Shown here piece after piece: positions 1,104 through 61,414 of a stretch of DNA of 64,000 nucleotides. The DNA is from Amphiscolops sp. MND2022 (lineage: Eukaryota), in the NCBI GenBank assembly GCA_964187785.1, contig OZ076409.1, forward strand, positions 49,974,001-50,038,000. The letters run 5' to 3'. Position numbers and translations under genes: made by a program. The notes beneath the pieces were generated by a model that was not told where the DNA came from, ran no database searches, and saw only the letters and a program-made list of their open reading frames with translations. Numbering within the stretch: the first letter of the stretch is position 1; every line of letters starts with the position of its first letter.

Positions 1104-1561
1104 CGACTATTAATCAACGGAATCAAAATAACATACTAACCAGAGTTTCAGTCCGATCCAAATTCAACGGGTACAAGGGGTTCTCACGACCCAAGATGGC
1201 TCGAAAACACCCCCACATTTTGCGCAGAAGGAGTTAATTGCCTCGGACCTGCAAAAACTCCACAATATTATTCACCATAGTCAGAATCGGCACAGTAGAA
1301 TCAGGCAGGAAGGTAGTAAGTCTTAAGGGAAACTGAACCCGTCTGATTTATCCTTGAAGGGTTTTGCAAGGTAGTCCTCCCTCTGAGAGTCACTCAGTTC
1401 CATTGGGTCCATTAGCTTGTTGAATACGGGCAACCCACAGTGAACCCTGCATGAAACGTCTGCACCCCAATGACCGACGCTCCCAAAATGGCGACCAAAC
1501 TCCCGTGGGCCCCGCGACTCCATTGAAACATCTCGATGACAGATAGTGCAGAAGAGCCTAG

Positions 1562-3120: not shown

Positions 3121-4770
3121 GAACGGAGAGATTTATCCCAACATTCTCCTTAACCCTAAATTAATCCTAAAGCCATTGTGGAACAATCGATTACATCAGT
3201 CAGTCACTGAAGCAACGTCAAAAAGATGAACAATTTGAAGAGAGTGTACGAGCTTATTGACATATCGTCAAAAAGTGAAGAGGAGAGAACTATGGAAAGA
3301 GCTTCCACCTCCCTCCCTAGAAACACTCAACCCAACTTCAGAGTAATACTAGAAATCTCAAATTCTTCAGCCGTTGCGGACGAGGAAGAATACTTTGACA
3401 TCTCTGCAGACACTTTGGAGGCAAATTGTAAGAGAAGGCGACTATACTCAACTTTCGAATCTCTGCAATCTGGAGAGCTCCCCAGCATTTCCTCAAAATC
3501 AGCATATAACGAAATGAGAGAAAGCCCTGAGAGCCTTTCGAGCAAACGGAAGATTATAAAGAAGGGTTCATAGTCGAAAGTCACAAAATACCGAGCCCCC
3601 AGTCGATAATGAGTTGCATGATCACCGAGTATCTGGAGCAGGTCCATAGGTGAGTAGACAATGTTTCTCTTTTTAAATTCCTCCGGGCATCCCCAAGAAA
3701 ATATTTTCCGACCAGTGAGCCCCCTGAATGACCTTGAAGAAGAACTTAGCAAGAACCTAAACCAAGAAAACTAGCAACGTAGCAGATATCAGAATGAAAT
3801 TGGTCCCATTGACGTTCAGGCCTCGTCAAACCGGGAGAGCTGTTCTACCCAGAAGAGTGGTCCTGTCACAACCCGCGCCCGGTTTGGGATGTTCATGCAG
3901 ACGTATTGCAATCGGAAGAGGACACGGCTGTAGTCTACGTTTCCCAAAATGGTAACCAATTTATTGACTTTAAATCACTTAAAATCTTTTCCAAAATAAA
4001 CTGTGACAGAAAATGTAAAATGTACGCCAACCTTGCGCAAGCTCCAAATGAAAATGAGCTCAAATGATTTCACGCATTTCCAGTAAGACGCTTTTGTCAC
4101 GTCAGAATAGAAGCCTTCACCACCTGAAAACTAAATAAAAATGCGTCTTAGGATAAAATATCATAGACTAATCTAAATGAAAATATATAACCAAAACTCT
4201 CTCCAAGAAGGAACACCAATCAGTCCTAAAACAGAATTCACATTGAGATAGCACACCGAAAAGATCGCGCCTTCTCTAAGAAAAGGCAGGCTAATTACAT
4301 TTTGAACAGCAATTAATGTGAATGAGGACGGTATCTCGTCGCTAAGTAAACAATTATGGCAATACATGCAAATATTACTATACCTGCGACGTCATCAAAG
4401 CTCTGCTAACTAGTCGTCTAACTAAAAGTATTCCAAATTACTCGTCGGTGTGACGTCACTAACTTGGTAGCTAGTCAAAATTTCATTCCAAATCCTGGTC
4501 AACACTGCGTCACAAATCTATCAAAACAGTTGTTTTAGTCCATCCAAAATAATGAAATTAATGCTTCATTGTTGTTGTAATAATTTTGGTGCAAGGAAAT
4601 CGCTTAAATTACGCTTAACTAAGTTAGTGTAATTGTAAAAGGGCATTTAAGATACATCTACTTGTCAGATTACGGATTTCGTCAATTCAGATGATTGCGT
4701 TGAAGCCTAATTTGGATGAAAACGTTTCCATATTATTTAAAAAGAAAGTCACATTTTCTTCTAAAAGACG

Positions 4771-8758: not shown

Positions 8759-9831
8759 TGGCACAGCCCGCTTCCGGCTGTTATCGCTTTGGATGCAGTT
8801 AGAATTAAATTTGCTTTGATGAACTAATTAGAATGATTTTTGTGACGTCATCGAGACAGCTATGCTAGCAATACGTTGTTATTTGGAATGCCTTTTGTGA
8901 CGTCAATAGAACGAAAAATGGAATGATTTTTGAGCTTGCCGTAATACCTCCGTAAACTACCGCTCAGCTATGCCTAATCATAATACGTACGGAGCAGTTA
9001 CGGATCAAATACAGCTAAGCCTAATCTCAATACGTACGGAGCAGTTACGGAGCAAGTTGTGAAATTGTAGTTGTGAAACGATATTTTAGGCTAAATTTGA
9101 AAGGAAGTTTCCAAAGAAACGATGCACTAAGAGAGTTTCAGAAAAGGATTTCATATGAAAAAAACTGCACTGTAAATAAAAATTGTGAAATTGTGCTGGT
9201 ATTTTTATTGTTTTGAGATCATTTTGATATATTAGCCTTAGAATTACGTTCACTTTACGCAACCCACAGATTTTCCATAGAGCAAAGTTGATGATTTCTT
9301 CCCTTAACCATGACCCACAGTTTAACAGACAATTCATAATAACATCCGTTGAGGAAAATATCAAACTGATTTTTACTTTACCGCCGGTTTGACGGTCAAA
9401 CAGGAAATGAAATTGCCTGAACAAAAACGATTTCAACAAATGTTACAAAAAGTTGACGCAACCTAGGAATTTCGATACCTGATTTTGTGACGTGGGACTA
9501 AAATAATATGAATCAACTAGGTGTTGGTGTGAACAAACCCATTTTTATGATAGCTATGACTTTTTAGGTGAGAAACAAAGAATGCTAGGAGAGTATAAAG
9601 GTGTTGGTTTTGTAAATTAAATCATAGGTATTAGTAATCTTTGTTACACTGTTACATTGCTAAAACGATTCTTCTTGAAAAGTTCGAATCTCTTTGAAAC
9701 CTATTGTTTCTTCTCAAAAATGACAGCTCGAAGTCATAAAAGCCTGAAAATACATTCACTGCACCTACATCAACCCCTATGAAAACCCTAAACGACTACT
9801 CAATATAATACTCCGGTAGATAGTCGTAACA
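8759..9831 (+). mobile_element. Solo LTR, same broad family as the E1 LTRs, internally deleted
   Basis: TG..CA ends (TGGCACAGCCCGCTTCCGG..AGTCGTAACA), 5-bp TSD GGCTC at 8754-8758 and 9832-9836, TACGTACGGA repeats, and a residual MTARSHK start at 9720. Confidence 0.9.
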
Positions 9832-9939
9832 GGCTCCAGACTGACCATGCGCTGGGCCACATATGGTCCAGAGCATGGTCAACCTGGAACCATAAGTCGT
9901 TATGGTCCAGAGTATGAACAACCTGTTTTTGTATGGGAG

Positions 9940-12057
9940 TATTACGGTCATTCACCGGTGTAATTTTTAGAATAACCGTATTAGTTCTAGGTTTTACAGG
10001 CGTAGATGTTATAGTTGGCGGAGCGTTTTAGTTTTCAGAGTCAGATTCCTCAGTTAAATTTAATGTAGCATGCTGCTTAGCAACAGCTGTTACTAAATTT
10101 AGCATTTCATTTTGGTTTTCAGCTAGAATTTTGGTGAGATCAGAGAGGATTTTTTTTCTGAGAGTAGATTTCATCTCCTCTAGGTTTTCAGTTTGAACCT
10201 TTGGTGATTTGATCGTTCCTGCTACGGATGTTCCCATTTAGGGGCGTCTCTTGGCTAATTGAGATCAGGTGTTCTACTGCTATCCGTTTCCGGCTTCTGG
10301 TAGTCATTTTTGAAAGAGAAGAAAATTATTCTTTGGGATTTTTAGAAATCTTCAAAGAAAAGATTTCTTATCAACGTAGAGCTTGCGCAACAGCAAATGA
10401 TTCAATAAATCTTCACAAGCGTTCTAAGTATATATACTTTCTCAGAATCATTTGTTCCTTGCCCAAAATTTCCAAGGAATTTCAAAAATCAGTTTTGTTC
10501 ACGAAAAATGCTTAATCATCCTTTTTATTTCAGCTTTTCGATCATTGGTTCAGGTTTTACAATTCCTAGTCACGACTCCCTTACGGAGCATCTGTTGAAA
10601 ACATTTTTGTTCAGCAATCCTACTTCCGGTTTAGTTAGAGAAATGACGGCAAAGTAAAATCTAGTTGAAACTCTACCGAAAGAATCACGCTTGCGTGAAC
10701 AATGATTCAGCGCATTATCAGCAAGAATCATCTTTCGCGTCAAAAGAATGACAAGCATAAAAGTGGTTTCGATAACCTTACGGAAAAATTCCTACTTGAA
10801 ATGCCAAGAAATTTTAGAGCTATTTCATGGAAGGAACAAATGATGCTGGTAAATGGCGTATTGAAGCCGCATTTATATGTTTCATAGCGACAACAAATGA
10901 CAAACATCAATGATAACTACCATTTTTCCTTGCAACAACAATTAACAAGGATCAATGATAACTAACAAATTAGGTATTCAACAAACTAGTCAATCAGCCA
11001 AATTAAGCGTTTCACCAATGAATTTCATGAAAACAACACCTTTTGGGTCTTCAACAATAATTTTCCCAATGTGAGTACTTTCTTGTCTTAACCTACAGCA
11101 CGACTATTCAAATCATTCCTAACAATACAGGAATTAAGCGGAACTTAAAGAGCCTAATATTGTTACTTATTGATTAGTCCGTAATGTTTCCGTACGTAAT
11201 AAGATTGAGTATAGTAGTCTAGATTAGCTTTCGATTTTCACAAACTATTCCGTAGTTGTTCCGTACGTATTAAGATTGACAACGGCTAGCTTAACAATCT
11301 TCATTCTTACAACTTGCTCTTCGTACAAATTAAGGTTGGTTACAATTGAAAGAGTGCAAGCGGCGATGTAGCGGAGCGCGTAGGCGTTCATTCTCTTTCT
11401 CTTATTTGATTGGCCTGGCTATGGTAACATCCTAATAAGAATGAGCTAGCGTCCTATTGGATTGAGCCCAAATAGTTCAACCGAGACTCAATGCTATTGG
11501 TTCGTACAGTTAGAAACTAGATTTACAGTCCCAGTCCAACTCGCGCCCATTACGTTGTTGATAAATATTTAGATTACTAGCTTGCAATCTTAATAGATTT
11601 TGACAGCTACTTCAACCACTATTGTGCCATCTCTATTATGTTTTGGTATTTCTGTTTTAGATTGGACAATGTTATCCGTGGGAATCGCGGATTCAAATTT
11701 TGATCCCCGTTATTCAGGGTGTAAAAAAATTAATTTTGTTTCACTTTTGTTTCCTTTCAATTATTTAGGTCTGTATGGAAAACGGTGTGGACTGAGACCG
11801 GAACTGCAATATTCTAAACATGAAATAACACACCGGAAGTTTTTACCCTGTCAGAAATCACTTTTGAAACTTCACGTAATGCTTCCGTTTTTTGAAAAGT
11901 TTCTTTTGTGTTTTAACGCTTAGTCGTGCTACAGATCAAGTAAAGGTAAGGGATTGTTTATACTCAGTAGATTTTTGATTTGTCATGGCCAACTGCACTT
12001 CGAATTTGGGGATGCCATCATGGCAAGTAAAACACCGAGCGGGAGCGGGTCGTGATG
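9940..12057 (-). repeat. 3' LTR of E1
   Basis: Direct repeat of 21182-23308. It contains the MTTRSRKR.. ORF from 10307 to the LTR end. Confidence 0.9.
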
Positions 12058-13066
12058 GGGCAACTCTCATTTTTGGTGCATGATTGTCAGGGCAATGATG
12101 TATCTCCTTCGTGACTAGTACTGGTTTTTTCCTCAGTCTGGGCAGCTTCTGTGAAGTATAATGTCGTCCTCGGTTACATACCGGGTGGGTCTCTCTACCA
12201 TCTTCCAGGCTGATACCACATACTTCCTCTAACTCAGCCACCGTTGGTTCCGTTAGGTCGTCGAGTTTTTCCACTTATTTCGCGGTTCCTCTTGCGTGGC
12301 ATTCACGTTGGTGATGTCTTTCAGTATAGGGGCCGGCGACAACCGGGGCAACTCGCGGGACGAGTCTGGTTCCTCATAGTATTTGTCTGAATCGTCTTCT
12401 GGCTGTTCTTCTACTAGGAAAGCTTCTCCTTGATCGGCCTTTTCCGGGGTAAAGTTCGCTTACCACCTTTTTGGCGATCCGGTGGACTCAAAAGTAGAGA
12501 TGGTTTCCCGTGACAATTCGAGGTCTGCTTCACTGCCTCTCCATACCTCCACGGAGGAATCATTTATATCGAGTCTTCCCATCATGTTCACAGGTAGCGT
12601 TTTGATTGGCGTACAGTGCCTGTTATTTTCCTCATCTTATGAGATGTCTATGACAAGAACATAATTGTGCATTTAAATTTTTGTAGCAAAGATTTGTTGA
12701 TCTGGTTTTTTTTAGTTTAACTGCTTTTCTTGTTTGCTGTACGGCAAATGAAGAGGTCAATTTTCTTTTACTGGCAATTTTACTGCATTTTTATTGTCGG
12801 TTTTCCCGTCTATGTTCCGGTCCGTCCTAAGTTCGGGAAACGTTTTGCTTCCGTCTGCGCTGCAATTGGCTGAACCGAGAAAAAAAATTTTCTGAATTTT
12901 ACCTTTTGTTATGACGTCATCATATTTTCCGAAGGAGTAGCGTTCATGTGACGTCATAAGTTTAGGGGTGATTTTACTTCTTTTCAGTGCTTCCGATCAC
13001 ATTTATCCATTTTTGGTTTTGGAAGCGATAGGCTTCTGTCAACGCCGTAGTAGGCTTGGGTAAAAA

Positions 13067-14280
13067 ATGAGAGATGAATTCTTTCGTTGTTACAACTCTC
13101 TTAAGGTTTTCTGATGAAGGTCACATGTTTGGTGTTTCGCTGTTTTGGGGTGATCTCGTTGGCATTACCCCTGTGTGGCGCCGCTTGTTTAAAGTATATG
13201 GAAGTCAAATTGATTGCCGAGTTTCCTTTTGCCCCTATTGATGATTTTCTGTCTTATGATGATTATGAAATCGGGAAGAAGTTAATTTGTGGGAAGACAA
13301 CCGAGATGCAGTCATTTCGTGTACAAAGCCGCGAGTTCATAGACAGACTGATCTTTGTATTAGTGGAGCGAATCAGTGCAACTGCGAGCTTTTCCCGGTG
13401 TTTGTCAAGTTTCTGTCCCGAGATCATGTTGGACGGTAATAATAATGCCGTGTTCAATCTCTTCTCTGAATTGAGCAGAGTGTTACTTACTTGTGGCGTA
13501 CTAACGTTGGATGAAACGAAGGCTGCTATGGAGGAATTTACCAGCTACTTTGTTTAGAAGCAGAGGCTGCACGAAGCTTCTGGTCAACTGGCTGGTGAGA
13601 TTGGTGATGTTGTTGATTATATACTGCGGGATTTCAGTTTCGAAGCCCGACATAATCTGCGTCTGGTAGTTGGTGGCACTCATAAGGCTTTGCTGACCGT
13701 GACGCTTGGTTCAAGTGGATGTGACCTTGATCATAGAGTGGTACAGGATTGTCTTCATTTGGTGCAGTCGTCCGTGCTATCTCCTGTTTACAGTCATTCG
13801 TCTTTGTTTACTGTACAGACCGTAGAGAGAGTTCGTGGAGCTATCGGCAATGCTGGTGTTTTCTACGTTTCTACTTCTCAGCCGGTTTTGTTTTGTGGAA
13901 AGAGTTGTTTTACGGTCATGATCCAGGCTCTTTTGTAGCTAAACAGAAGGAAATCTACCGCCAGTTATTAAACCAACGACGCAGAGATTGTGAAATCAAT
14001 TATATTGTGCTCGATAAGTCTTATCGTGAAGCGCGGTTTCGATAGGGTTCTGGTTAATCTGAAGTTGGGAGTGCTACGATCTCTGTTGTTAAAGCTAAGA
14101 AGGAGGTAGCAACAAAAACTGTCTTCGTGGGGTCCTCGTCGAGGATTGCTTCCGGGGCTGCTACGTCAAGGAAAAATGCTGGCAAAGGAGGTGTAGCCGA
14201 CTCCAAGAAAGACGGCGGTGCTAGTCCGTCAAAAAGGTCAAAGAAGAATGAAAGAGGAGACGAGGAAAATACGATGTACG
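13067..14280 (+). pseudogene. Antisense accessory gene, copy B (C-terminal part)
   Basis: MRDEFFRCYNSLK..FLMKVT and SFRVQSREFIDRLIFVLVERISATASFSRCLSSFCPEIML align to QRDAAFFTYGQFCQFL.KLC and KFAAKARGYFIFLLETMLRNVHLTADIVHGIACFDPHVLL of copy C. It has a basic S/K-rich tail and is convergent with the end of pol. Confidence 0.7.
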
Positions 14281-14519
14281 CCATAGAGTTCGTGATTTAT
14301 TTGGTAACTGATATGCTGTTGATAGACGTTTGCACCATGAACTAGTGAGGTGCCTTTATACTGTATTTATGTTGTTGTTGATTTGATGTTGATCTTTGGG
14401 CACTGTTGGTGTCTTTGATATTTTTTTAGTTTAGTCTATTAGTTCCAAAATTGACGTAGCTAAACCGGTTCGGTTTGGCTAGCTGATTGTTTTCATTCAT
14501 TCTTGAGTTTGAGGTATTC

Positions 14520-17500
14520 CTTCCACAGTGACAGCGTCAAGCATGCGGAAATATGGGTGTGCATTAGGCCTCGGATTAGGGCGTAGATTGTATCTCCCCG
14601 TTTTTCGCGGATTGTAACTAACTACAATAGGTGGTAATTCCGGCGCTTTAGGGAGTTTCTATAGGTGGTGGGGTCGTTATGTAGGGATTGTCACTAACGT
14701 CCAGGTTATATGACGTAATATCTCCTTGTGATGATCTGTCCGCGGTAGAACTTTCACTTGCGGTTGTTATAACCGCTTCATTTTGCGTTGTCTGTGCTTC
14801 ATCAATTGGCACTTCTGTGATCGCAGCTTCTTCTTTTCCTTGTTCCGATGAGTTTCCGAACAGGACTTCTCTGAATTCGGTTTCCCAAGCTTGCGAGTAC
14901 CAATCATCATGGGTTGTTTTAACCTCAGGATCTGGAAGTTGACAATCCGTCTTGACTGTTATGTCAGGTATTCGTTGATTGGGCGCATACAGCCTTAGGC
15001 GAATTCTTTGGAGGGTTTGGATGTATCGTGTTCCTGTTTTTTGTAGGACGTAGTTTTTGTTGGAGAGGATTTTGACTACTTGCAGGGACCGGCCCAAATG
15101 CAATCCTTGAATGCAAGTTTCATTGACTAGTTATCAGCCTTCGGGTTCAAGACATAGCAGTAGTCATTGACTTTCAATGGCGTTGCTGTCGCGTGTTTAT
15201 CATAGTATCGCCTTTATTTCAAGTATGATTGCATGAGGTAATCTTTGGCCGCCTGGTGGGTTTCGGCTATCTGTTTCTGTAATTTATCCGTAAGTTCTGC
15301 GTTTTTCTTTCTTCTATTCTGGCTTAATTCCCAGTTTGATATCGAAGATGTTGTACTGAGTTCGTCCGTAAAACACTGTTGTCGGTTCGCAGCCTAGCCA
15401 CTCTTGATAGCTTGTGTTGTAATTCATGACTGCAATTTGTGCGTATTTATGCCACATTGAACGTTGTTTTCCCGTCAAAATGTTTAAGGACGTTTTTAGT
15501 GATGCGTGTGTCCGTTCGAGTATGCCTTTTGTTTGGGCGCGTTTCGTCAATGCCTGACTGATGCGTATGTCAAGGGTTTGAGCTATTTGATTTACAACGT
15601 TCGAACGCAATTGTGAGCCTTTATCCATGAGAATCATTGTTGATAGGTAACAATGGCGTGTCAATTCGTCGACTATGCAACGGCCGACTGTTCTGGCTGG
15701 CTGTCATGTTTTGGGTAGGGTATGCGAAGAGATATCGGGAGAAAACATTCATCATCGTTATGATAACATGCTTGTACCCGTTTGATCAAAGTAGTTTCGG
15801 TAGTATATCGACTTCTAAACAGTCTTCGGGTCCAAATGTGAGTTCCGTGTTGCTAAGCATCTTCGGGCGTATTTGTCGTATGTCTGTTCGTTTGTTTGCA
15901 ATGCAGTCAAAGCAACTGATGACCCAGGCCCTGATTTTTTGTGCTAGTACCGGATAGTAGTATTTCTCTCTGCATTCTTGGATCATCTTGGTGATTCCTG
16001 GATGTTTATTCATTTTCCCGTGTAATGTGGATAGTAATTGCGATACTTTTTGTTTTGGTATCAGGATTTGGTGATATGTGACTGTGCCGTCCTCCCGGTA
16101 ATATTTTCGCATGAGGACTCAATCCTTGACTATTATTCTTTTTTCATGGCGTAGGAGATTATGTCCTCTGGGTTCAGTTTTTAAGAGATGTTTTTCATAT
16201 TCTTCGTGTAGTAAGCGCAATATTTGTGTCTTCAGGATCGGGTCGGAATTTTGTTTGTTACGTATTCGTCCATTTTCTTTGTTTGCTCCAAATGCATAAA
16301 CTGTTGCATTAAGTGGTAAGTTTCTGTTTTTTTTATTTCTGTAGACAGATATTGCTGTTCTTTTTCGTCTATCGCTCGTTGTTTGCTAAGTGTTTTCCTT
16401 GCAAAAACTCCTTGCTCTGTTTCTTCTTCCTCGTCTGGTAGAAAGAAGAGCTGTTCTTCGTCGGCTACGTCTGTTGACTGTAGATTGACCCCTATGGGGG
16501 CCGTTAGGATGTCGTCGTGCAGTTTGAGTTGGACTCTTTCTTTGGGGGTTAGTTCTAGTCTGGACAGGAAATCAGCTGCAGTGTTTTGTGATCCTGCTAC
16601 GTGCATGATGCGGAAGTTATATTGTTATACAGGGTCACAAGCATTCCTTAAAGGTGGTTTTTGTTTGGAAAAGTCTCTTCACCGATCCATTGTCCGTTAG
16701 TACTAGTGTTGGTAGCGTTGTTTCCCGTAGGATGCGACTGTACTCTAGGAACGCATTTAGATAGAAACTTTTTTTATCGTCGTTGTCTTCTATCATTAGT
16801 GCGTATCTGGATGCTCTGAAGCTGGCACCCGTCAGAAGCACGTATTGTTTTCCAGCAACGGGTTGTCAGAGTGCTAGTCCGCATGCTTTCGCGAGGCTTG
16901 CGTTGAAGTCATTAACGAGTTCTTCTGAGGTGTTGATTTTTTCATCACCTTTTAGTAATTCGTACATTCCAATAATCTTTTTTGACAACCCTGGTTTGTA
17001 GTTTTGGTAGTAGTTGACGAATCCGATTTTTATCTGGACTTGTTTCTTTGATTTAGGATATCTGATCTTGGACAAGATGTTGGCGATTTGTGGTCTTGCG
17101 GGGCTACTCCGTTGAGGGTGACGGTTGTGCCAAGGAATTCAACTTGGGTAATCCCAAAGTGGCATTTTTGATCGTCAGCTTTAGGCCCGTTTTACGGTGC
17201 ATTTGAAAACTGCTCGGATGTTCTTGAAGAGTTCTTCCGTTGTGTTGGCGGCGATCCCAATATCATCCACGTATTGAGCACACTGGTCTGCTTTGATGAC
17301 TGTGTCGAGGTACTCCCGCATGAAGCTTGAGACTGCTGACAAGGCCATATAAGTCCTTAATCCAGTTTACGGTAAGCAAAAGTCCTACTGGCAAAATGAG
17401 ACGCAAGGAGTTCTACTAACCTTTGATCTGCCATTTGGAGACAGTGGTAGGCTTGGGAGCAGTCAAGTTTACAGAAGATCTTTTTCCCCGCTAGGTGTTG

Positions 17501-20500
17501 CGCAGCGTCTGAGAGGGTGCTGATTGGGTTATTGTTTTTTATGTAGTCATCTGAGATGAGTGCGTTGATCTTCCTCAAATCCACGAGTAGGCGCAATTTT
17601 TCGTTGAGTTTACGTTGAGCAAACATGGGGCTGGCGTACCTCGGGAGTGGGAGAGTTGTGATGATCCCATATCTCTGCATTAGGGCCAGTTCCACTGTGA
17701 GGTCATCTTTGAGGTTTTAGGGTACGGAGAAGCTCTGTGTGTATACTGGCTTGTCGTTTTTAGGAGTTAGGCATATTTTGGATTGGGTATTCATTCCGAT
17801 GTCAAGACGATGGCGGGCGAGAATGTCATTGATTTCAACAATGATGGATTCTAAGTTTTCCTGATCCTCTCCCGTTACAAGTGAGTCGTTCCATTTGAAC
17901 ATTGAGAGGAATTGTGTTCTAGAGCGTTCGTCTTGTTTAGGGTCTAGTTGTTCTAGTTTTTGTAGTTCCCGTAATTCCTTGAGTATTCGTTGTTGGATGG
18001 GGGTGTGTTCCAACTCAGCTCCTGGGTTCTCGGGTGTTGTGAACCAAAATTTTACTTCTGCGTTTTCGGGGAATTAACGCATTAATATACGCAACAACGT
18101 TGTCATGTTCTGTGAGGAGATTGAGTACTGCTATGTCTACTGGCCGTATTGATTTCGTTTTTTCGGGCTTCAAGATTTGCAACTCTGCCAGTTTGGTGTG
18201 TGAGTTGACGGTGTATGGGAAATCCATTGTGTTGGCTATTTCACGCGTTTGTCACGGGCTGTTGTTATTGCTGGGACTACGATGAGTTTTGCTGTCTCAT
18301 CGAAATGTGGTAGGGGTTGGACGGTCCCAGTTATTGCGTGGTCATTACTCACAGTTACAGATGCGTGGATGATTCGTGTAGCCTGTGCTGGGATGATGTG
18401 TTTCCCTCGGGCTTGATGGGGATTGGTCTCGGGTTGCACTTCTGCATCTCATCTGTTAAAGCCAAGGTGAGTTGTATTTTAGGGAAGTCAATAGTACGTT
18501 GTACAGTGTCAAGGATTGCGGAGTGTTTCCGGAGTAACGCCAGACCAAATATCGCGTAGGACGTTTTGGTGATGATGATGAAGGTTTCTTCGAACGTCTC
18601 CGATCTTGAATTTCATCCTGTATGTGGCAAGGGCGTTTTCGAGCTCGGTGTTGGCGAAGTGTATTTTGATAGGGGGGTGGTGGTGCTTTTTCAAGTATGG
18701 ATGCTTTTGCTTCTTTTTGTATTTTCTGCGCGTCTTTTTCGCTGATGACATTTATATAGGCTCCTGAGTCGACTAGTGCGTCTATTTTGACGTTTTTGAA
18801 TTCGATGGGGATGACGAGCATCCTTTTTTGTTCCTTAAAGGCAATAGCTGACATTAACGGGATGTAGTCGTCATCTTTGTCATGTTGTTTGAATTCCTTA
18901 ATGACCTTGAGGTCGTGAGGCAGTGGTTGTGGGCATTCTGTTGCTTCCTCGTTCGTTGTTATTGGGCGTGGTTTGTGGCTGCGAGGGGGAAGGAATGATA
19001 ATCTCCCTTTGTTGCTTCGCTTGTTTTGACCAGATCCTTTTGTGTTCGAAGCATATAATGTTCTCTGCGTCTATTGGCGTGAACGTTACTGCTGCAGGCT
19101 CTGATGGTATCGTTTCTGACTTCTTCAGGATCGTTGACAGTGGTGGAGGAAATTCTGTCGTAGTTTCTGTTTTTTCCTGTGGGTTTGAAATTTGTATTTT
19201 AAATGTTCGTGCTTTGGTATCATATATTGTAGGTTCGTCCCACGGATCACAGCGGTAATCCGTGTCATATATGTAGATTCTGTCGGTTTGTGATTCTGGA
19301 TCGTTTGAGTGTGGCATCTTTTTCCGGTGATTACGTTATCCATTGGGGAAATGGCTTTGGGTCGTTCGGATGTCTGGCGTTGTGACGGAGGATCATACCT
19401 ACGTTCCAGCGTCTCGTCGTTGCCAATCTTGGGTTGCATCCCCATTGCATTCTGTCATGAAATCTTCCTTATAGCGGTTTGGGGGGTCCTCGATTGTGTA
19501 CGCCCTCGCATCTTCTTTTCCCCGAAGCGTATCCGCGGCGATCTTAGTTTTTTGGCTGAACTTTGATAGTGGGGATCGGTTGTTCGCTTATTTGGCTTGT
19601 GGGCATTGCGAACTCATGTCGTCGTCTTCTGGGGTCATTTGCCGCGTTTGCTCCGTTCCAGCAATTTTCTGTTTTGTGGGTTTTTCCGCATGTGTCGCAT
19701 TTTGGTTTTGAAGGGCAGTTGAGCTGGGAACTCCATTTGCGCTTTAATTTCGTAGTACCTGTCTTTCCTCAGTTTGCGGCATTGCCCTTTATAGTGTCCA
19801 TATTTGCCACCGTAAAAGCAGTTTCCTCGCTGGTTTTGTTCTTTCTTTCTGGTGGTGCGACGTCAACTGAGTTTAGCGGGACGAGAGCGGTTGCGTCAGG
19901 GGCACCCACGCCATTGAGGTGCATTTCTCTTTCGAGATGTAGGACGAAGACAATGTTTGGCTTGTCTTCAAGGTAAGGATTTAAAGATCTTTTCGACATT
20001 GTCCGGCATATTTCATATATGGCTTTATCTATGAACTTTTGCGCCTCTGGATTGAACGCCTCCTTTGCTGTTTTTTGTAATACATCTAGTAATTCATGGA
20101 GTTTATTTTTGGTTGGGTCAAAATGTAAGGAGTCCCATTCACAACGAGCTTTTGCGGACAATTGGGAGTCTCCGAAGCGACGTTTGAATGCCGTGATTAC
20201 TTCTTCGAGGTTGTCTTTTTTCGCATCATCAAGAATACAATACGCCTGGAACGCGTTGCCACGAAGTAGGGAGTGGAAGTAGTTGGTTTTCTGTATCTCG
20301 GTTAGGTGTGGATACTTTTTATATATTGTTTCGGAATAAGTCCTCAAAAAGTTTGATTTTTTCGGACTTACCATCAAACACTGCTAGTGATGCTGGGAGT
20401 GCTTTTGGCATTGGGGGATATTGGACGGTTGGTAGACGTCAGGTTGTGGTGCGAGCAGTCGTCTCGAAGTCGAGTCACGTTCGTTGGGCGGCAGACTTTG

Positions 20501-20594: not shown

Positions 20595-21181
20595 ACATCC
20601 GTTGATGAAAATTTTAAACTGACTTTCACTTTACCGCTGGTTTGACGGTCAAACAGGAAATGAAATTGCCTGAACAAGTGTTACAAAAAGTTGAGGCAAC
20701 CTAGGAATTTCGTTACCTGATTTTGTGACGCGGGACTAAAATAATATGAAGCAACTAGGTGTTGGTGTAAACAAACCCATTTTTCATTTTTACGATAGCT
20801 AGGACTTTTTAGGTGAGAAACAAAGAATGCTAGGAAAGTATAAATCTGTTGGTTTTGTAAATTAAATCATAGGTATTAGTAATCTTTGTTACACTGTTAC
20901 ATTGCTAAAACGAATCTTCTTGAAAAATTCAAATCTCTTTGAAACATTTTTTTTCTCAAAAATGACAGCTCGAAGTCATAAAAGCCTGAAAATACATTCA
21001 CTGCACCTACATCAACCCCTATAAAAACTTAAAACGACTACTCAATATAATACTCCGGTAGGTAGTCGTAACAGGCTCCAGGCTGATCATGCGCTGGGCC
21101 ACATATGGTCCAGAGTATGGTCAACCTGGAACCATAAGTACTTATGGTCCAGAGTATGAACAACCTGTTTTTGTATGGGAG
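20595..21181 (+). repeat. Duplicated copy of the flank 9342-9939 (solo-LTR 3' part, MITE piece and TSD) located inside E1
   Basis: Directly alignable by eye from ACATCCGTTGA to TTGTATGGGAG. Confidence 0.9.
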
Positions 21182-23308
21182 TGTAACGGTCATTCACCGG
21201 TGTAGTTTTTAGATTAACTGTATTAGTTCTAGGTTTAACAGGTGTAGATGTTATAGTTGGCGGAGCGTTTTAGTTTTCAGAGTCAGATTCCTCAGGGCAA
21301 ATTGATGTAGCATGCTTCTTAGCAACAAGTGTTATCAATTTTAGCATTTCCTTTTGGTTTTCAGCTAGAATTTTTGGTGCGATCAGAAGAGATTTCTTTT
21401 CTGAGAGTAGATTTTATTTCCTCTAAGCTTCCTGTTCGAACCTTTGGTGATTTGCTCGTTCTTGCTACGTGGTTCTCATTTTGGATGTTCCCACATAGGG
21501 GAGTCTTTTGCTCAGTTGAGATCAGTTGTTCTACTGCTTTTCTGGCTTCTGGTAGTCATTTTTGAAAGAGAAGAAAAGTATTCTTTGGGAATTGTAGAAT
21601 TTTTGTCAACGTAAAGTTTGCGCAACAGCGAATGATTAATTTAATCTTCAGATGCGTTCTAAGTATAAATACTTTCTCAGCATCATTTGTTCTTCACCTA
21701 AAAATTCCCAGGAATTTTAATAGTTTTGTTCACGAAAAATGTCAAATCATCCTTTTTATTTCAGCCCTTCGATCATTAGTTCAAGTTTTAAATTTCCTAG
21801 TTACGACTCCCTCGCGGAGCATCTGTTGAAAACATTTTTGTTCAGCAATCCTACTTCCGGTTTAGTTGAAGAAATGGCGGCGAAGTAAAAGTCTAGTTGA
21901 AATTCTACCAAAGAAAGCACGCTTGCGTGAACAATGATTCAGCGCATAAACAGCAAAAATCATCTTTCGCGTCAAAAGAATGACGAGCATAAAAGTGGTT
22001 TTGATAACCTTACGGAAAAGTTCTGACTTGAATTGCCAAGAAATTTTTGATCTAATTCATGGAAGGAACAAACGATGCTGGAAAATGGCGTATCAAAGCT
22101 GCATTTAAATGTTTCATAGCAACAACAATTGACAAAAATCGAGGATAACTACCAAATTTCATAGCAACAACAATCAACAAGCATCAATGATGACTACCGA
22201 AGTGGGTATTCAACAAACTAATCAATCAGCCAAATTAGGCGTTTAACCAATAATTTTCATGAAAACAACACCTTTTGGGTATTCAACAAAAATGTTCTCA
22301 ATGTGAATACTTTCTTGTCTTAACCTACAGCACGACTATTCAAATCAACTTTCAACGCGGGAATTAAGCGGAACTTAAAGAGCCTCATATTGTTAATCAT
22401 TGATGACTCCGTAATGGTTCCGTACGTATTAAGATTGAGTATAGTAGTGTAGATTAGCTTTTGATTTTCACAAATGATTCCTTAGTTGTTCCGTACGTGT
22501 TAAGATTGACTATGGCTAGCTTAACAATCTTCATTCTTACAATTTGCTCCGTAGCTGCTCCGTAAATATTGAGTTTGGTTATAATTGAACGAGTGCAAGC
22601 GAAGATGTAGCGGAGCGCGTAGGCGTTCATTCTTGTTCTCTTATTTAATTGGTGTTGCTATGTTAACATTCTAATAAGACTGAGCTAGCGTCCTATTGAG
22701 TTGAGCTCAAATAGTTCAGCCGAGAAGTAACGCTATTGGTTCGTAAAATTATAAACTAGATTTTCAGTCCCAGTCCAACTCGCGCCCATTACGTTGTTGA
22801 TATATATTTAGATTCCTAGCTTGTGATCTTAATAGATTTTGACAGCTACTTCAACCACTATTGTGCCATCTCTATTGTTTTTTGTATTTCTCTTTTAGAT
22901 TGGACAATGTTATCCGTTGGGGTCGCGGATTCAAATATTGATCTTTGTTTTGTTATTCAGGGTGTAAAAAGAATTATTTCTTTTTACCTTTTGTTTCCTT
23001 TTAATTATTTAGGTCAGTATGGAAAACGGTGTGGACTGAGACCGGAAATGAAATATTCTAAACATGAAAGAATAGACCAGAAGTTTTTATCCTGTCAGAA
23101 ATCACTTTCACACTTCGTAATTTACGTAACTCTTCCGTTTATTGAAAAGTTTCTTTTGTGTTTTTACGGTTAGTCGTGCTACAGATCAAGTGATGGTAAG
23201 GTAATGTTTATACTTAGTAATTTTTTGATTTGCCATGGCCCACTGCACTTCTGAATTTGGGGATGCCATCATGGCAAATAAAACACCGACCGGGAGCGGG
23301 TCGTGACA
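21182..23308 (-). repeat. 5'-side LTR of E1
   Basis: TGTCACGACC..GACCGTTACA, flanked on both sides by GGGAG. The ATG of the MTTRSQK ORF is at 21559. Confidence 0.9.
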
Positions 23309-32400: not shown

Positions 32401-33856
32401 GCTGACCAGAAATCAATAGATCTGCTGTCATCCAACTTTGCTATTCGCACATTTGCGTAAAGACATTTGGCCCAAGACCTTAGCAGGGCTTTTTCCGCAT
32501 TCTCCTGCTTTGTGAGGGCGTACCTTGACAAAGTCATTAAAGGGGACAAGTGTGCCCAGTATATGGACGACATCGGCATTGCAGCCAACGATGCCGACCA
32601 CCTCATATCAAATTTCAGAGCCATTTCCAAGTGCATCCAGAAACATGCCTTAAACTTACAATGCAAAAGTGTCTTTTTGATGCAACAGAAAATGACTTCC
32701 ACGGGAAAACGATAACCCCCAAGGCGGTAAACCTCAGAAACGTTCAATGTCTCCTTGAAAAAACCGATTTTCTGAAGTCAAAAAAAGCTCGCACTTCTAT
32801 TAGGAATTTCAAAATTACTATCGAAGTTACGTCCCAAGACTATCCGAACGCCAAGACCCCTCTACAAGATGCTCAAAAGTGACGAAAAAGTCTTGGTGTC
32901 TAAAAAAGTGGTTCAACAATTTGAGGGAATTCAACAAAGCACTCGACAAAAGCTGCGAGCTAGCCCTACAACGGCCTCTAACTATTGAGCAAATTGCCCT
33001 GATGACGGTTGGGATACGCCCTCCTCGTTGAAAATGATCCACACCGAAAATTCACTTCGCTTCGCAAATCATAAGCTTCGTTAGCCTATGGCTCAAAAGT
33101 GTTAACCCGAACCCAAATCAAGATGTCCATGTACGCATAATTCAAAGCGATATAATTTGCATTAAAAAAACTTGGACACATCTTCGGAGGAGCGCTTAAG
33201 CTGGTCATTATTCTTACTGACAACAAAGATGTTACACAGTTTTTCCGAACGAAAATCGTTCCCCCTTCCCAGTGGCAACCTTGCGACTATGTAATCCAGT
33301 TCATTTATGTCATTGCCCACAACCGAGGAGCCCAAAAAACAGCAGCAGATTACCTCTCCCGTCGTGGGGCTAATACCAAAGATAAAATAGTTCTGAAAGT
33401 CCGTGAAGATGTGCAAACCTTGCCAATGTAAAACAAAGTTCAATCAGCTGGAGTTACGGAAGAAGACCAAATCTTCTTACTATTGAGGGCGACGAAACTG
33501 AGGAACAACATTGGGAGAGGAAAGAAGAAGCAAGGCACCACCCCGCCATCACAGAACCCACAATAACAATACAAACAGTTGCCACCAACATAACAAAACA
33601 GCAACCTGAAATACACGTCCACCCAAACAAAACAAACCAAATAGTGATTGAACACTTTAAGGTTGCAGTACTACAAGAACTGATAGCCAAAATCTGTCAT
33701 GAATAATATTCACGATACGTACTGCAACAGCATGCGCGGTACCAGCACTACGCAAACAATTTAGAACTTATCGTGGTCGAAGGAGACAATTTGACTCAAC
33801 AATATTTTGACGGAACAGGGCACGTGAAGTTCCACCAGATACGTCTCCCACAACAT
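29401..33856 (+). mobile_element. Gypsy element E2a, 5' part (putative LTR 29401-30043, PBS 30044, gag, RT, RNase H), decayed
   Basis: TGTTACA start (boundary uncertain); ..CA|TGGTGGCAGGA; FDGKSEKIELFEDLF; CGTCGKANHPGERC zinc knuckle; AQYMDDIG; AADYLSR. Confidence 0.85.
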
Positions 33857-36769
33857 GAAGTCAAGGAAAAAGAATCGCTCTTAGTAGAATTCCACGCCAT
33901 ATTTGCCAGTCACAGATCTGAAATTGGACTGAAAGGGGAATTCACGATCAAACTGACACCGAAGGATGATTCACCAGCATACAGCTAAAACCTACGAACC
34001 CCAGTCAATTAAAAAAAGGACCACTTAGTCGAACTGGCATCACTCCACAAGTATGGCATAATTACAACACTACCATTTTTAAAACATGCTAGTCCTATGT
34101 TTGCACAGTAAAAACCTAACGGGAAACTAAGACTATTGGTCGACCAGAGGAAACTTAACAACCTCGTCTCTGATGATGACAACAACAATATTCATCCAGT
34201 AAACACCCTAACTGTCACGGCGCAACACTTGGCAGACAAAAAACTGTTCGGCAAGCTCCATTGTTCGCAGCCCTGCCATTGTCTCCATATGGCAGACCAA
34301 TATCAATCGAAAGGCTTGCTTTCACTTTTGCGAGCAGAACCTTCACATACAGGAGACTTGCCCAAGCTCTCAGTAGATCCTTATTGGCCTTTTCAAGTTT
34401 TGTGTGCGAATATCTAGACAAAGTCATTAAAACAGACGAATGCGCGCAGTATGTTGACGATATATTCAAAGCCGCCAACGACGACGACCATCTACTTAAA
34501 AATCTTCGAGCAACATTTGAGGGCATCCGCAAAGCTGGATTGAAATTAACAATGCACAAATATCATTTTGGACCAACCGAAATAGATTCTCGGGAAGGAC
34601 AATCACCCCTGAAGGATTGAATTAACAGAAAAAACGGATACTGCTTTCTTAGTGAAAATGAAATTCCGAAAATCTAAAAAGGCCCTACAAAGATATCTGG
34701 GTTTCCTGAAATACTACAGGAATTTTATCCCAAGATTATCAGAGAAAAAGCTCAACTTTCCTAATTTTTCAAAAAAGACGAGAAAGTCTTAATCACAACC
34801 GAGCTAGTACAACAATTTAATGAAATCAATCGAGATTCAGACAAATGCAGTCAACTGGCATTAAAACAACCGTAACCGAATACCCAGCTGGTCCTAATGA
34901 CAGAGGCAGTTTTACGACAGCTGGATACGCAATCCTCACGGAAGTTGGCCCTAATCAGAAATTCACCTCTGTCAGAAAATCATACGCTCCAATAGCCTAC
35001 GGATCGAAAACCTTTACACCCTTGCAGATGAAAAAGTCGATTTATGCCAAGGAGCTATTTTCTTAGCTATTCTTCGCTATCTTCTTCGCTTCCAACGAAT
35101 TTGGACATATATTCTGGGGGACGCCCAGGCTGATCACTATCCTCACGGACAACAAATCTTTAACCAGATTCTTCCAGAAAAAGATAGTATCTCCAGCACC
35201 TTGGAACGCTTGTGATAGCGTTATTCAATTCAACTTTGCTATATCGAACTTTTTGGGAAAAACAACATCGCAGCTGACTACTTGTTCCGAATTGAAATGA
35301 ATCTTAAAGTGAAACTGGTCATAACAATCCACGCGGACGTAAATCGTCTTTACCAAAGAGGACGATGAGACAGAAGAAGAAATTTGGGAACGCAAAATGT
35401 AACGGCTGCTTGATCCCTTCAGTTGACCAAACTTTACGCCGCCTTGAATTCGGTGCTCGGCACTGCGGATCGTTACCGAACACTGCTCACGACAAACGGC
35501 CATGAATATGGCCTCAAGGGAATATCGTCGTCAAGGGCATAAATAATTGCAGCTAGCTATTTCCCTAATTACAACACAACTTACTTTTCAAGTATTGGTT
35601 GCGAACCAAGCAAAATCTTTCACGGGCGATCCCCTTATAACTTCCTAGATCGCAAACAAGGAATCAACCCAAATCGAGAATTTTCCTTTTTTACGGAGTT
35701 TGCGGGAGGAATTACAGCAAAGGACGCACATCTTAATTGACAAAACCAAAAAATATGTAATGCAGTCATATTTGAAACACAAACAATTTTGCGACCAAAA
35801 AGCCAAAGCATCCCCTCTGCATGAAAAAAATTTCTGTTTCATTTTGCAACCGGAAGCAGATAATCAAGGCTCAAAAACACTGTCCAGGGACTATCGTTGG
35901 GATGGACCATACGTAATTGAAAAGATATTGCCTATGACGTTTAAAACGTCCGGCGTTTAAACACAAATAAAACGCAAATACTACACCAACTCAGACTGAA
36001 AACACTTGTCCCAAATACACCCTTAGAGGACAATTATTCCAAAGAGAAATCACAGCCTGATGATGAAAGAGTTATACCGCAAGAAGACTTATATACCCTT
36101 TCATGGAAAGCTGACTTCGACTACCAAATAATTTTGCCGAGACAAGACGATGAGCCGAATGAAGCAGCTCAATCTCCAGCGATAACACGGTAATGCCGAA
36201 GCCGGCCACCAGCCACGACGGAAAAAATTCACGAGACGAAAACGACGTCAACGAACATACAGCGAGTGAAGAGGAGCGAGATGAAAATAAAAAGCCCCGT
36301 ACGGCTGACCGACAAGATAATCCAAGTGGAGACAATACGTTCCTAACTCGAAAAATAGTGCAAACGACGACTCCAATGAAAATTTGGACACAGGAAATTT
36401 GGGGCTAAAAGGGGCTAAAAGGGTCCAAAAGGGGCCTAAATATTACCGTCACCTGAATATCAAAAAAGGAAATGACAGAGGAAAAAACTGATGAAACAGC
36501 TAGCCCTAGGGAAGAGAAATATAACCTTCGAACTACTTCACACCCAACTTCACTGTTGAATGCAGGTACTAGTAAGAACAGTAAATTACAATCCCCTCTC
36601 TTTCATGACCTGAAACGGCTTGTATGTCAGCAGCACTACTTTGACTATGGGACAAATAACATGAAACAAAAGAATAAATACAAACAGAAAACAATGAGTT
36701 TACAAATACACAACTACAAACAGAAGGTAGAGCAAATTTCAATTAGTCTTTACAAGGTTCAATTAGTCC

Positions 36770-39640
36770 TTCCTTTAGATACTTTACAGCTTGGGATATT
36801 TCCGAGGGGGGAATGTCTCTAAAGAATGCCAACTTTTGGGGTCTTCCAGAAACGCGAAGAACATTACGGCTTGTGGTTGAAGAAATGGAAGAAGAGCGAG
36901 AGTGCAAAAAGACAGCCTTGACGGGTGTAGATTATAGCCCATTAAACGCTGCAGTTAAGATTTTCACGAATGGACCCGGAATTGCTCTCCCAAATCTCGG
37001 AATATGCCGAATGGAAGCTTCAGAGGAACAGAAGTTGACTGCTTCAGGACTGTTAGATAAGTAGGACTGTGCTGGCAAAAGCATGTCGACAAGACGGCAT
37101 TAAGGGTTGGAAGTATCGACCTCAAGGAACCTGATGGCAGGAAATTCTACTTCACCCTCTTTCAGGCGAAGGCAGCTTAACCGGAAAAAAGTACATTTTT
37201 CCGAGTTCGTAGAGCAGGGAGGGCAATAAGGAAGCTGACGACATCTTCAATTTGCCCTGGTAGATCTTTGAGGTGAGGAAAGGTTGTTCAGAAATAATCG
37301 ACGAACCCCACATATTCTTCGCGTGAATCGGACTCTGAGTTCTCTCGACCCAACTTCGCAAACGGAAAGTTTGGAATAGCGCGCTAAATCAGAAGGAAAT
37401 GGCAAAGAGAGCAACACGTGGGGATCAAAGCAAGCAATCCCATGGACGATATCCGCAGTGAGGTGAACGTTGCGCAACATGGTTTCCAGCAGAAATATGA
37501 AGTAGCCTCGAGCCTTTGCAGCAAACTTGTCCCTTTCAGCGGTTATCAAGACAACGAGTTTACTCGGATTTCTACTTGGGTCACTTCGGGATTGGTGGAC
37601 CCTGGCCCTATAAACAGCATCCATATCTGTCGTTATTACCAGACGATTCAGGAAGTCCCGGCCGGAAAGCAGCCGAAGGTCATCAGGACACAAGTGCAGC
37701 AGGCCCGTCTAATTAATATCCTCTGGAACACACTGGGGAAGGACGGCACGGGAGCAGAGCTTTCAAAGAAATTGGCAGAATTGGCCATAGGTGAAAAAAG
37801 CGGCGTCACGTTGCCGTTGCCCGGATAAGCTCCGATCAAAGCACTCGATATCTAAACGAGATTCCTTCTTCAAGTAAGAATATTGAGAAAGCAGGAACAC
37901 GTGAAGGACATTACTTACAATCGCGGACTAGAAAGTCAAAGATCTCCAGTTTGACGCTGAAGTAAACGTCCATCAAGACCATCATTTCCAGGCTCTGTGG
38001 CTATAATACAAGCCGGAAAAAGTTTTTGTGCATCAAAGTTCTGACTGAAACTTTGATTACTACTGCTCTTGATAGAGCGCACTCCGCGCATTCGGCAGTC
38101 CCAAATGTTGGTCTATTGGGTCACTAGTTCAGTGCACAAAATGGCCCGCAAATCCAGATCACAAGCAATAGTGGCGTAAGAAGCAAATGACAACAATAAA
38201 TATGTGGCCCTAAATGGCCTGAACGCCTCCCTAGATACGAACTCTGACATGATTTTCCACAGGAAATTGAAGACAAGAATAAAAACTTTGATTGAAAGAT
38301 CTGGGCACTTGAGAATCCAAGGCTGATCAAAAGTGTCATTGAGGAAGACGACGAAGTACTTCATCTTGGAGAAGAAACCAATCTTCCCGAAGAAGCTCTC
38401 GTACTTTTGATGGATGAGGCGTGGAAGAGACAAGACCTCAAATCTGAAGGTGTACTGGACGGCATTTTTGAATAGCCCGCACTGAAAGAGAGTTTGCAAT
38501 ATGGCCGAAGGGCCGCCAGAGACACTCACGAGGTTATGTACTGAGGAGATTAAGGACAGCAAACGTGAAATTGACCCGAGGAGGTTACCAGGAAAAGCTG
38601 ACGTAAGAGATTGTCCGCACAGTTCAACCCACTGGATTACATCTTCTCGCCAGAATGACACAGCCATGTAACAGTTACCTTTCCGACAGGTGAACTCCAA
38701 AGAGTTTATACATCCTGTGGTTACTTGTCCGGCAATGCCCTCGGTACAACGGAAAAAAATGAGGTGGAATATCTTCTAAAAGCAAAATAAAATTGAGCCA
38801 AGTGTTCACCCAAGAAACCCTTTCTACCTAGATAGCGAAATGATACTCACTGTGAAGTTATCAACTCTCCTATTGAAGTCGGAGAAAAATCTCTGGTGGC
38901 TGGGGAAAGTGCCAACACGGGTCCAAAGGTTCAGGAGTAAAGACAGTCATCCCCATGCGTTACATAGATTCCAATCTAAGATTTGGGTGTCATTCGCAAC
39001 TCATCCGGACTTGATGATCTGCCCATAGTGGCCATGTAATCGTCAAAGAAAGGAAACTTGTCTCCGATGTCAACTTGTGGCGCATCAATAAAGAGTGGTT
39101 TCTTCTCCAACTCTAAAAGGATGAGAATTTACCCGTCTTTTCCGTGGACCTGATGAGTCACTCTGCCGCTTGTCAGCATCGACTTCACTGGGGTGCTCGT
39201 TCCTCCATCTTTGGCCGCGCCGCCAATGTCCTTCGGTCTTTTATTCACGAAGAATTTATCTGGCTCCTTTTGAGTTTGTTTCACATATCTAGCAGTGAAA
39301 TTTATAGCGGTTGTGAATGGGGTCGAGTGGCCCGGAAACGAAGGTCCCAGTCAACTGTTTGCCTTTGAAATTGGCGTCTTTCATCACTATGCCTGGTTTA
39401 CAAAGCATTCTTCTTCGTTTGCAAGGAGGACTAGCCACTACAGTGACAGGTGACTGCGCTTGGGCAAGTGACGCAAACGGCCGGTAATCGGCGCTGCTGT
39501 AACTGCTTCTTGAGTTTGGAGTCAATATTCCTAATGGGTCTGGATTAGCTGTCATTGAATCAAGAGTTCTGAAGGCAGATACAGCAGGAGGGTAACCCTC
39601 CGAGGATGTCTCAATAATGTGGGGATCTTCATCAGAGTTA
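36770..39640 (-). pseudogene. Antisense accessory gene, copy C (most complete; two GT-AG introns, 38850-38776 and 37918-37852)
   Basis: KRRR basic patch and TFVSGPLDPIHNRYKFHC*IC..SKGAR*ILR..RTEGH zinc finger. Both introns join flanking frames in phase with ORFs 38113-38700 and 37247-37693. The end coordinates are approximate. Confidence 0.8.
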
Positions 39641-39906
39641 ATTGCTTCAAAGGTATACCCATCGCTTTCTGCAACTGTGTTTTCTTCTCATGAACTGCAA
39701 TCGTAGCCCAGAGCTGCAGTTCCTGATCTGCGATGGATTTTTCGGGATAGGCGCTTGTCCAATGGGATACCTTTGGTCACTTTTATCCCAAGTGTTTAAA
39801 AGTTGGTCAATCAATTGTTTTGTTGCTTTGTTTAATATTGTTGAAACGAAAACGCTTTTCTTTGAAAAATTCACTCCTTCAGAAAAAATCCTCATTCTCA
39901 CTTAGA

Positions 39907-61359: not shown

Positions 61360-61414
61360 AACTATACATCCACAGAATATTACACTTTCTATACAAGATG
61401 TTTTTCGCACATAC

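Follow-up and report, generated by a model that had tools for sequence, protein, structure and literature searches.

Gypsy retrotransposons of an animal genome carry an antisense, intron-bearing gene with a transposase-like layout

We identified a multi-copy gene family that is carried antisense, in the interval from pol to the 3′ LTR, by Gypsy/Ty3 retrotransposons of an animal genome. As a genomic feature this cargo gene is well supported. It is under purifying selection, keeps its introns in young dispersed copies, and is predicted to encode a protein with the layout of a catalytically dead hAT transposase. Two properties are new here, the exchange of the cargo gene as a module among element backbones and the presence of a second, SIM-like ORF head-to-head with it; the remaining observations follow up a first-pass annotation of the window, i.e., the whole stretch of 64,000 nt analysed (G000:C1:49974001-50038000), with searches over the 1.07-Gb assembly.

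The cargo gene in the window and its Gypsy carriers

Three elements in the window, designated E0, E1 and E2b, had been proposed to contain a homologous antisense coding region, and family profiles bore this out, matching exon 2 of the E2b copy (E 4e-53), the last exon of E1 (E 6e-55), and the zinc finger and exon 2/3 of E0 (E 2e-21 and 5e-11, respectively); the zinc finger of E2b was matched by the zinc-finger profile (E 5e-35). The E2b copy (36743-39783, minus strand, as are all its parts) is a decayed member of the family, 48-70% identical, exon by exon, to intact-looking genes elsewhere in the genome. The 3′ part of exon 1 (38851..39783) comprises an acidic S/T-rich region, a basic patch, a C2H2 zinc finger and a helical linker; the 5′ part, ~250 codons, is gone, and unrelated sequence lies past about 39795. 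In tblastn searches with the L031 gene, this part aligned at 52% identity (E 2e-88) with 9 stops within the alignment; exon 2 (38293..38775), which codes for an RNase H-like core without catalytic aspartates and whose frame is open here, at 66% identity with 0 stops; and the decayed exon 5 (36743..37851), which codes for a helical region with an FDP motif and a basic tail, at 48% identity (E 5e-108) with 5 stops. Exon 4 (37919..38000) is 82 nt long and 70% identical to that of L031. Intron 1 (38776..38850, 75 nt, phase 0) and intron 4 (37852..37918, 67 nt, phase 1) are real, are bounded by GT..AG and lie exactly where they had first been placed. Introns 2 and 3 had been overlooked, their splice sites being decayed or deleted in this copy: the intron 2 region (38176..38292) has a non-canonical acceptor, and the intron 3 remnant (38001..38097) has a deleted donor and has kept its acceptor, the limits of both being approximate and placed from the family positions. 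Between them lies an exon 3 remnant (38098..38175), shortened by a deletion that spans the exon 3/intron 3 border. The idea that removal of two introns restores the frame did not hold, given the stops in exons 1 and 5 and the frame changes visible in a six-frame reading; the E2b copy is a pseudogene. The domain order of its protein was as originally described. The decayed Gypsy pol of E2b (RT, RNase H and the C-terminal part of integrase; 33845..36572, plus strand) ends ~170 nt from the cargo stop, and the two genes are convergent, as had been noted for both E2b and E1.

In E1, a clade B remnant of the last cargo exon (13192..14308, plus strand; tblastn with L037 and L055) is left, the upstream exons having been deleted, and is convergent with a decayed Gypsy pol (14714..18239, minus strand) in which a protease lies upstream. 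The second accessory ORF of E1 (12002..12756, minus strand) is acidic, element-sense and head-to-head with the cargo, carries a SIM-like motif, and extends into the start of the 3′ LTR (9342..12055, minus strand). This LTR is 87% identical to the 5′ LTR (20595..23306, minus strand), where a TG start followed by a TGG PBS-like site was recognized by eye in what is an old element without a matching TSD. E0 contains clade B cargo remnants (32..1565, minus strand), namely a zinc-finger exon (1565-1144) and exon 2/3 (560-32), with a repeat inserted between them; a second accessory ORF with a SIM-like motif (3226..3573, plus strand) was tentatively recognized by eye in translation, and this probable ORF had no tblastn match at E<0.01. 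The cargo copies of E0, E1 and E2b gave no significant direct cross-match, because E1 has the last exon only and E0 upstream exons only. They are linked instead through intact family members, with blastp E values between clades A and B down to 1e-16 for the zinc-finger region, and down to 1e-13 for exon 2 and likewise for the last exon.

The cargo gene sat tail-to-tail with the pol of a Gypsy element, in the space before the 3′ LTR, at 39 of the 40 loci that had enough flank (5/5, 4/4, 16/16, 9/10 and 5/5 by batch), these loci having been hand-picked from the top matches for diversity and L001-L030 being left out of the count as too short to reach pol. The sole exception, L063, is interrupted by another insertion. 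The exon-2 query, in which the best 150 of 4,986 first-look candidates were scored, and the query with the last exon of E1, in which the best 150 of 1,919 candidates were scored, each give a lower bound and no copy number; two further queries revealed other clades. The order within an element is LTR, gag, pol, cargo (antisense), SIM-like ORF (sense) and LTR, and in the pol of L034 Pfam recognized a faint dUTPase, RT, RNase H and integrase, in that order. Among 40 scored matches to an LTR query there were 16 pairs and 8 singles; 15 of the 16 pairs were spaced 12.4-13.9 kb apart (the other, 23 kb), and 8 of the 16 enclosed a cargo match among those listed. One pair was ~100% identical, and the family must therefore have moved recently. 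By pol order and paired LTRs, the carrier is a Gypsy/Ty3 LTR retrotransposon, and the antisense orientation of the cargo sets it apart from an env-like ORF3, which is sense and follows pol. No TIRs surrounded the cargo gene at any of six loci tested, where the best inverted matches were of 10-12 nt in unrelated places, and no ends of a hAT-type element could be defined. A conserved poly(A) hexamer between the two stops was considered and rejected (18 sense and 14 antisense of 39 versus 22.8 and 10.2 expected). As for the host genome in general, nested insertions are common, as seen at L063 and in the window near 39795, and many genuine hAT elements are present.

The second ORF is head-to-head with the cargo gene and element-sense, and has a conserved motif that we take to be a SIM. 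Between the two ORFs, CCAAT was present at 9/9 loci (17 observed versus 11 expected, a weak enrichment) and TGACGT occurred 8 times versus 2 expected, all in clade B. From the divergent layout, an internal promoter is predicted between the two ORFs.

Introns, selection and exchange among backbones

In clades A, C and D, intact-looking copies are divided into five exons by four GT-AG introns whose positions are fixed; the original two-intron model had captured two of these introns. Clade B, to which E0 and E1 belong, has introns 1, 3 and 4 in common with them and lacks intron 2, and by eye its 5′ part appears to contain further introns; proteins of clades A and B are ~20% identical overall, and exon 4 is 82 nt in both. 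With exon ends set by protein alignment, GT and AG were present at 201 of 209 scorable junctions, a count in which young, near-identical copies make up many of the rows, two loci were entered twice, two junctions >260 nt were left out, and the acceptor of intron 4 in clade B (20 loci) was picked by searching for an AG close by and so is not blind. Both dinucleotides were found at 37 of 40 loci for intron 1, 45 of 47 for intron 2, 51 of 52 for intron 3 and 68 of 70 for intron 4. Intron lengths range from 54 to 180 nt across the family, and between families introns are mostly 42-60% identical versus 60-88% for exons. In three ENA proteins (P0020, P0141 and P0144) intron 1 is absent and reading is continuous across the predicted junction. 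These features suggest that the cargo gene is spliced; the exons of L031 total 3,567 nt from one ATG, with another in-frame ATG 54 nt upstream, and the predicted product is about 1,190-1,210 aa.

Introns are retained in young dispersed copies, in agreement with the proposal that they are kept through retrotransposition. Introns that lie antisense to an element are invisible to the splicing of its packaged genomic RNA. Since this RNA is the opposite strand, the spliceosome is blind to the introns of the cargo gene, which would be copied with every retrotransposition.

The cargo protein is under purifying selection, as the suggested dN/dS check confirmed: a codon model gave omega of 0.04-0.15 per exon, values that are rough because of saturation, with the lowest in the zinc-finger exons and in clade-B exon 2+3. 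Pairwise dN/dS medians were 0.04-0.23, from the few unsaturated pairs (7/78, 8/66, 13/120, 1/6, 1/28 and 0/6). RT and cargo trees of nine loci showed the same A/B split, with support of 100/100 in both, and the gene is therefore at least as old as that split. The great age attributed to it is thus upheld. Inheritance, proposed along with it to be vertical, is not purely so, since near-identical backbones of one clade trade the gene as a module.

Members of the same clade share 90-99% identity in RT, against 46-71% in the last exon, and the identity drop between backbone and cargo has sharp edges. In L032/L033, dS is 0.12-0.14 for pol and 0.16 for the SIM-ORF while the cargo is saturated at synonymous sites, and in L036/L039 dS is 0.10 for RT and 0.01 for the integrase core, again with a saturated cargo. 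Pairs whose pol tails are >=90% identical had last exons <75% identical in 21 of 29 cases in clades A/C/D and in 6 of 12 in clade B, the tail in question being 190 nt, short enough that it may be conserved for other reasons. Three cargo versions are enclosed by one LTR family. In clade B, a four-taxon test revealed no topological conflict (the tree favoured by integrase is also that of the cargo, and RT gives no resolution), and the claim of exchange therefore rests on synonymous distances and LTR sharing. Near-identical pol/LTR backbones with a synonymous-saturated cargo indicate that the gene has been exchanged as a module, by recombination between module and backbone in which either partner may have been the mover.

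Fold of the cargo protein and its possible roles

The predicted protein of ~1,200 aa opens with a disordered N-terminus, which is followed by a basic patch, a C2H2 finger, an RNase H-like core and, lastly, a helical region. The first third of the protein is rich in acidic residues and S/T; in many clade A/C/D-type proteins, its start motif and a block of ~60 aa are conserved. The CxxC..H..H finger, which follows the basic patch, is conserved in both clades and gave a sub-threshold C2H2 match and no zf-BED match in Pfam. A model of clade-B exon 2+3 (pLDDT 62) has the order strand-strand-strand-helix-strand-helix-strand, an RNase H-like topology. Hermes, a hAT transposase, was the only Foldseek match <1e-3 for this core (E 8.6e-4), and Hermes chains accounted for 7 of the first 13 rows listed; VIA-align superposed 100-103 residues on Hermes (Z 5.4-6.0, rmsd about 4), with Z-scores tied with or below those of actin, hexokinase/kinase and Pelota folds. 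The last-exon model was all helical (pLDDT 75) and had no Foldseek match in PDB or BFVD. In VIA its alignment followed residues 368-607 of Hermes (Z 4.6, rmsd 9.3, rank 15) and, with 179 residues, was the longest among the matches listed, the others being short helical pieces of <=93 residues. The separately modelled core and last exon thus match Hermes in order, at 152-266 and then 368-607.

Sequence searches gave no such link. Pfam returned no informative family for any exon, hAT families included, and no PF05699 match; a PDB profile search by sequence had no match; and cargo profiles did not score above shuffles against eight host hATs (L066-L073), two Z>3 scores falling in non-corresponding regions. 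ESM Atlas yielded low-score leads only (0.76-0.78), DUF659 for P0144 and unrelated families for exon 2+3. No longer, spliced or annotated homologues were found by a word-based search, which is weak evidence, and none of 233 pattern matches in JGI metagenomes was confirmed. A protein profile search detected 762 proteins at E<=0.001, and all 20 of the 20 clusters looked up were ENA records; among these ENA proteins one was identical to the host genome and another <=37% identical.

Like Hermes and the host hATs, the cargo protein has an N-terminal CxxC..H..H finger, then an RNase H-like core and then, as modelled, a long helical region. In contrast to them, it is without a conserved D-D-E or CxxH, TIRs or detectable sequence similarity, has an extra disordered N-terminus and is spread by reverse transcription. 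No acidic residue was invariant where strands 1 and 4 end or following the C-terminal helix, positions that were located by eye with the help of the model, the alignment to Hermes and the residue numbering of Hermes. With neither a conserved DDE nor TIRs, the cargo has a dead-hAT-like layout and is no member of the hAT transposons. We consider hAT ancestry probable on the grounds of modelled fold and domain order; the original suggestion of a hAT-like derivation is supported on that side and not by sequence.

An ancestral Gypsy element may have taken up an intron-bearing hAT-type transposase gene, reversed, in the interval from pol to the 3′ LTR. The DDE centre and any terminal repeats would have been lost, and a basic patch of the nuclear-import kind kept together with the zinc finger and the scaffold of the transposase, with the long acidic S/T-rich N-terminus carried as well. 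Judging by the layout, transcription would probably start from the predicted internal promoter in common with the SIM-like ORF and not from the LTR, and the spliced product would most likely be a nuclear DNA- or chromatin-binding trans-regulator that sustains transcription of the element in the face of host silencing. Inter-element recombination would shift the module among pol/LTR backbones, with many old versions persisting. We give about an even chance to the view that the cargo protein is derived from a hAT transposase, is catalytically dead and acts in the nucleus as a regulator or anti-silencing factor. The fuller scheme, in which a putative anti-silencing trans-activator is accompanied by a SUMO-binding decoy ORF and old versions are shuffled among element families in an arms race with host silencing, is tentative and less likely than not. 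A point against the regulator view is the occurrence of different cargo versions with the same LTR family, a poor fit to a tight, VANC-like co-evolution of protein and target.

The zinc finger, the basic patch and the scaffold of a transposase, an enzyme that deals with DNA ends, would also suit a protein of the same origin acting as an integration or nuclear-import cofactor, which would tether integrase or the cDNA complex to chromatin, the versions representing insertion niches. Versions are exchanged independently of the LTR, and such a role is raised for antisense ORFs in a plant review (PMC7264820). We regard it as rather unlikely: the cargo can be wholly different while integrase is near-constant (integrase-core dN 0.01 in L036/L039), which argues against a specific integrase interface. 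Free exchange among backbones also fits a host-facing decoy or Rev-like factor that would sequester the silencing machinery or export unspliced genomic RNA without binding element DNA, perhaps together with the SIM-like ORF. The large disordered N-terminus with its conserved internal block and the SIM-like motif of the partner ORF agree with this, and CERV of Cer1, a spliced nuclear accessory protein, provides an animal precedent (PMC10309623, in excerpt); however, constraint on the zinc-finger exons is among the strongest in the gene (omega 0.04-0.10; lowest cargo dN), which points to nucleic-acid binding, and we consider this reading unlikely. A functional cargo whose RNase H-like core came from another source, the match to Hermes reflecting a common fold, would explain the missing sequence link and the middling Z-scores, tied with those of unrelated RNase H-like folds, but appears quite improbable, as two separately modelled parts reach Hermes in order behind an N-terminal CxxC..H..H finger. 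That the region is a nested hAT passenger, or matters as antisense RNA only, is largely refuted and very improbable, real hAT elements and nested insertions in this host notwithstanding, given the low omega over saturated distances, splice sites kept though intron length varies, fixed place and orientation, and neither TIR nor DDE.

Comparison with known systems

For the cargo as a hAT-derived putative regulator, the closest counterparts in position are antisense ORFs that likewise follow pol and precede the 3′ LTR. They have been reported from Retand-type elements of plants and from a single fungal family, with no origin or function assigned (PMC11963269; PMC7264820). According to these sources, the ORFs of plant Retand, Grande and RIRE2 (TRP28, PF04195) and of fungal Boty are, like the cargo, antisense before the 3′ LTR, family-wide and ancient, a nuclear regulatory role is suspected for Retand-type ORFs as it is here, and gene23 of Grande has its own promoter (PMC11963269; PMC7264820). 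The cargo gene differs in having 3-4 or more spliceosomal introns, whereas the word "intron" is absent from the main text of the Retand paper (PMC11963269). It also differs in its size of ~1,200 aa, its whole transposase-like layout and its module exchange, in having no PF04195 match in Pfam, and in its animal host (7 Wnt matches over the cut-off) versus flowering plants.

A preprint describes how transposases function as activators with sequence specificity and how DDE is lost when they are co-opted (bioRxiv 10.64898/2026.08.24.746577); in its main text, on DDE-less transposase-derived regulators, "LTR" and "retrotransposon" are absent as whole words. VANC (PMC5735166) and CERV (PMC10309623) can be viewed as functional analogues, and Spm TnpA, FAR1/MUG and VANDAL VANC are TE-borne accessory proteins that act on transcription or silencing and show DDE loss and fast divergence (bioRxiv 10.64898/2026.08.24.746577; PMC5735166; PMC13547354). 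TnpA, FAR1/MUG and VANC, however, are plant proteins that work for DNA transposons or for the host, whereas the cargo is a class II-like gene in a class I element of an animal.

Accessory genes of animal retroelements, to which the cargo is comparable, include bdelloid ORF3 (DEDDy, GDSL), CERV of C. elegans Cer1 and HBZ of HTLV-1, which is spliced. Unlike the cargo, HBZ is small and retroviral. It is antisense and nuclear according to the excerpt used (PMC11963269). The ORF3 types of bdelloids are modular and shared, and no antisense, intron-bearing or transposase-like type, such as the cargo would be, is described in the available part of that paper (PMC5408684); nothing comparable to the cargo is described in excerpts of PMC6431247 and PMC13547354 either. 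In the open-access literature, we found no animal Gypsy element with an antisense, multi-intron, transposase-fold gene, in line with the earlier impression that none had been described.

If the proposed origin is correct, transposons of one class would have domesticated, in an animal, an enzyme that belongs to another. The family offers a many-copy natural test of intron survival through retrotransposition. It also provides a concrete candidate for the factors, still little known, by which animal retrotransposons counter silencing, and a way to approach the role of the antisense ORFs that follow pol; since the same backbone occurs with different cargo versions, function is testable by comparison. 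It illustrates, too, that repeat masking and ORF-only annotation can conceal a large spliced gene family.

A second accessory ORF and the cargo N-terminus

The cargo gene, the antisense transposase-like gene between pol and the 3' LTR of these Gypsy elements, has a head-to-head neighbor, a second accessory ORF of ~190–260 amino acids that is acidic and runs in the element-sense direction. One copy was located in the window (12002-12756, minus strand), and others were identified at cargo-bearing loci of the same genome (L031:3-662, L032:2-583, L036:8285-8953, L037:796-1512 and L039:1040-1783). Pfam returned no matches for this ORF. Its conserved motif, a hydrophobic stretch followed by SSDE, resembles a SUMO-interacting motif, and pS was far above pN. 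In clade B of the cargo family, the 3' end of the ORF overlapped the start of the 3' LTR.

The cargo N-terminus, otherwise disordered, contained a conserved N-terminal motif and a conserved block of ~60 residues (residues ~209–267 of L031 exon 1), as seen also in proteins P0016, P0018, P0020, P0024, P0028 and P0035; neither was matched to a family. In the window, an unrelated 182-residue frame (39751-40299, plus strand) starts where cargo exon 1 is cut, and one portion of it resembles sequence within the LTRs of element E1 (72%).

Other repeats and transposable elements

A dispersed non-coding repeat family occurred in the window at 628-946, 28861-29253, 42443-42756 and 55464-55960, and one copy lies within the E0 cargo gene. 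Long palindromes and 11-bp tandem arrays (46570-46635, 52575-52886, 43223-43475 and 58020-58885) are probably non-autonomous DNA elements. An open frame of at least 886 amino acids (61343-64000, plus strand) encodes Retrotrans_gag, and its long N-terminal part is rich in Q, T, N and P. The coding strand is strongly C-skewed here, and the frame belongs to a different element that may be young. Elsewhere in the genome, several hAT transposase families (L066-L070) had open frames of ~600–700 amino acids with catalytic motifs visible by eye.

Pol of the carrier elements and its 3' flank

Upstream of RT, a faint dUTPase domain (Pfam E-value 0.0035, below the cut-off) was found at the start of the pol frame (L034:2-240). 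In the window, two decayed pol segments in tandem (31427-33868 and 33845-36546), ~66% identical, suggest a nested or recombinant element, and part of the integrase is missing from E2b. Within the first 40 nt past the end of pol, 15 of 16 clade B loci (L040-L055) share a short conserved stretch directly after the stop codon, and clade A has a different one; these may represent a cis-element or a recombination edge.
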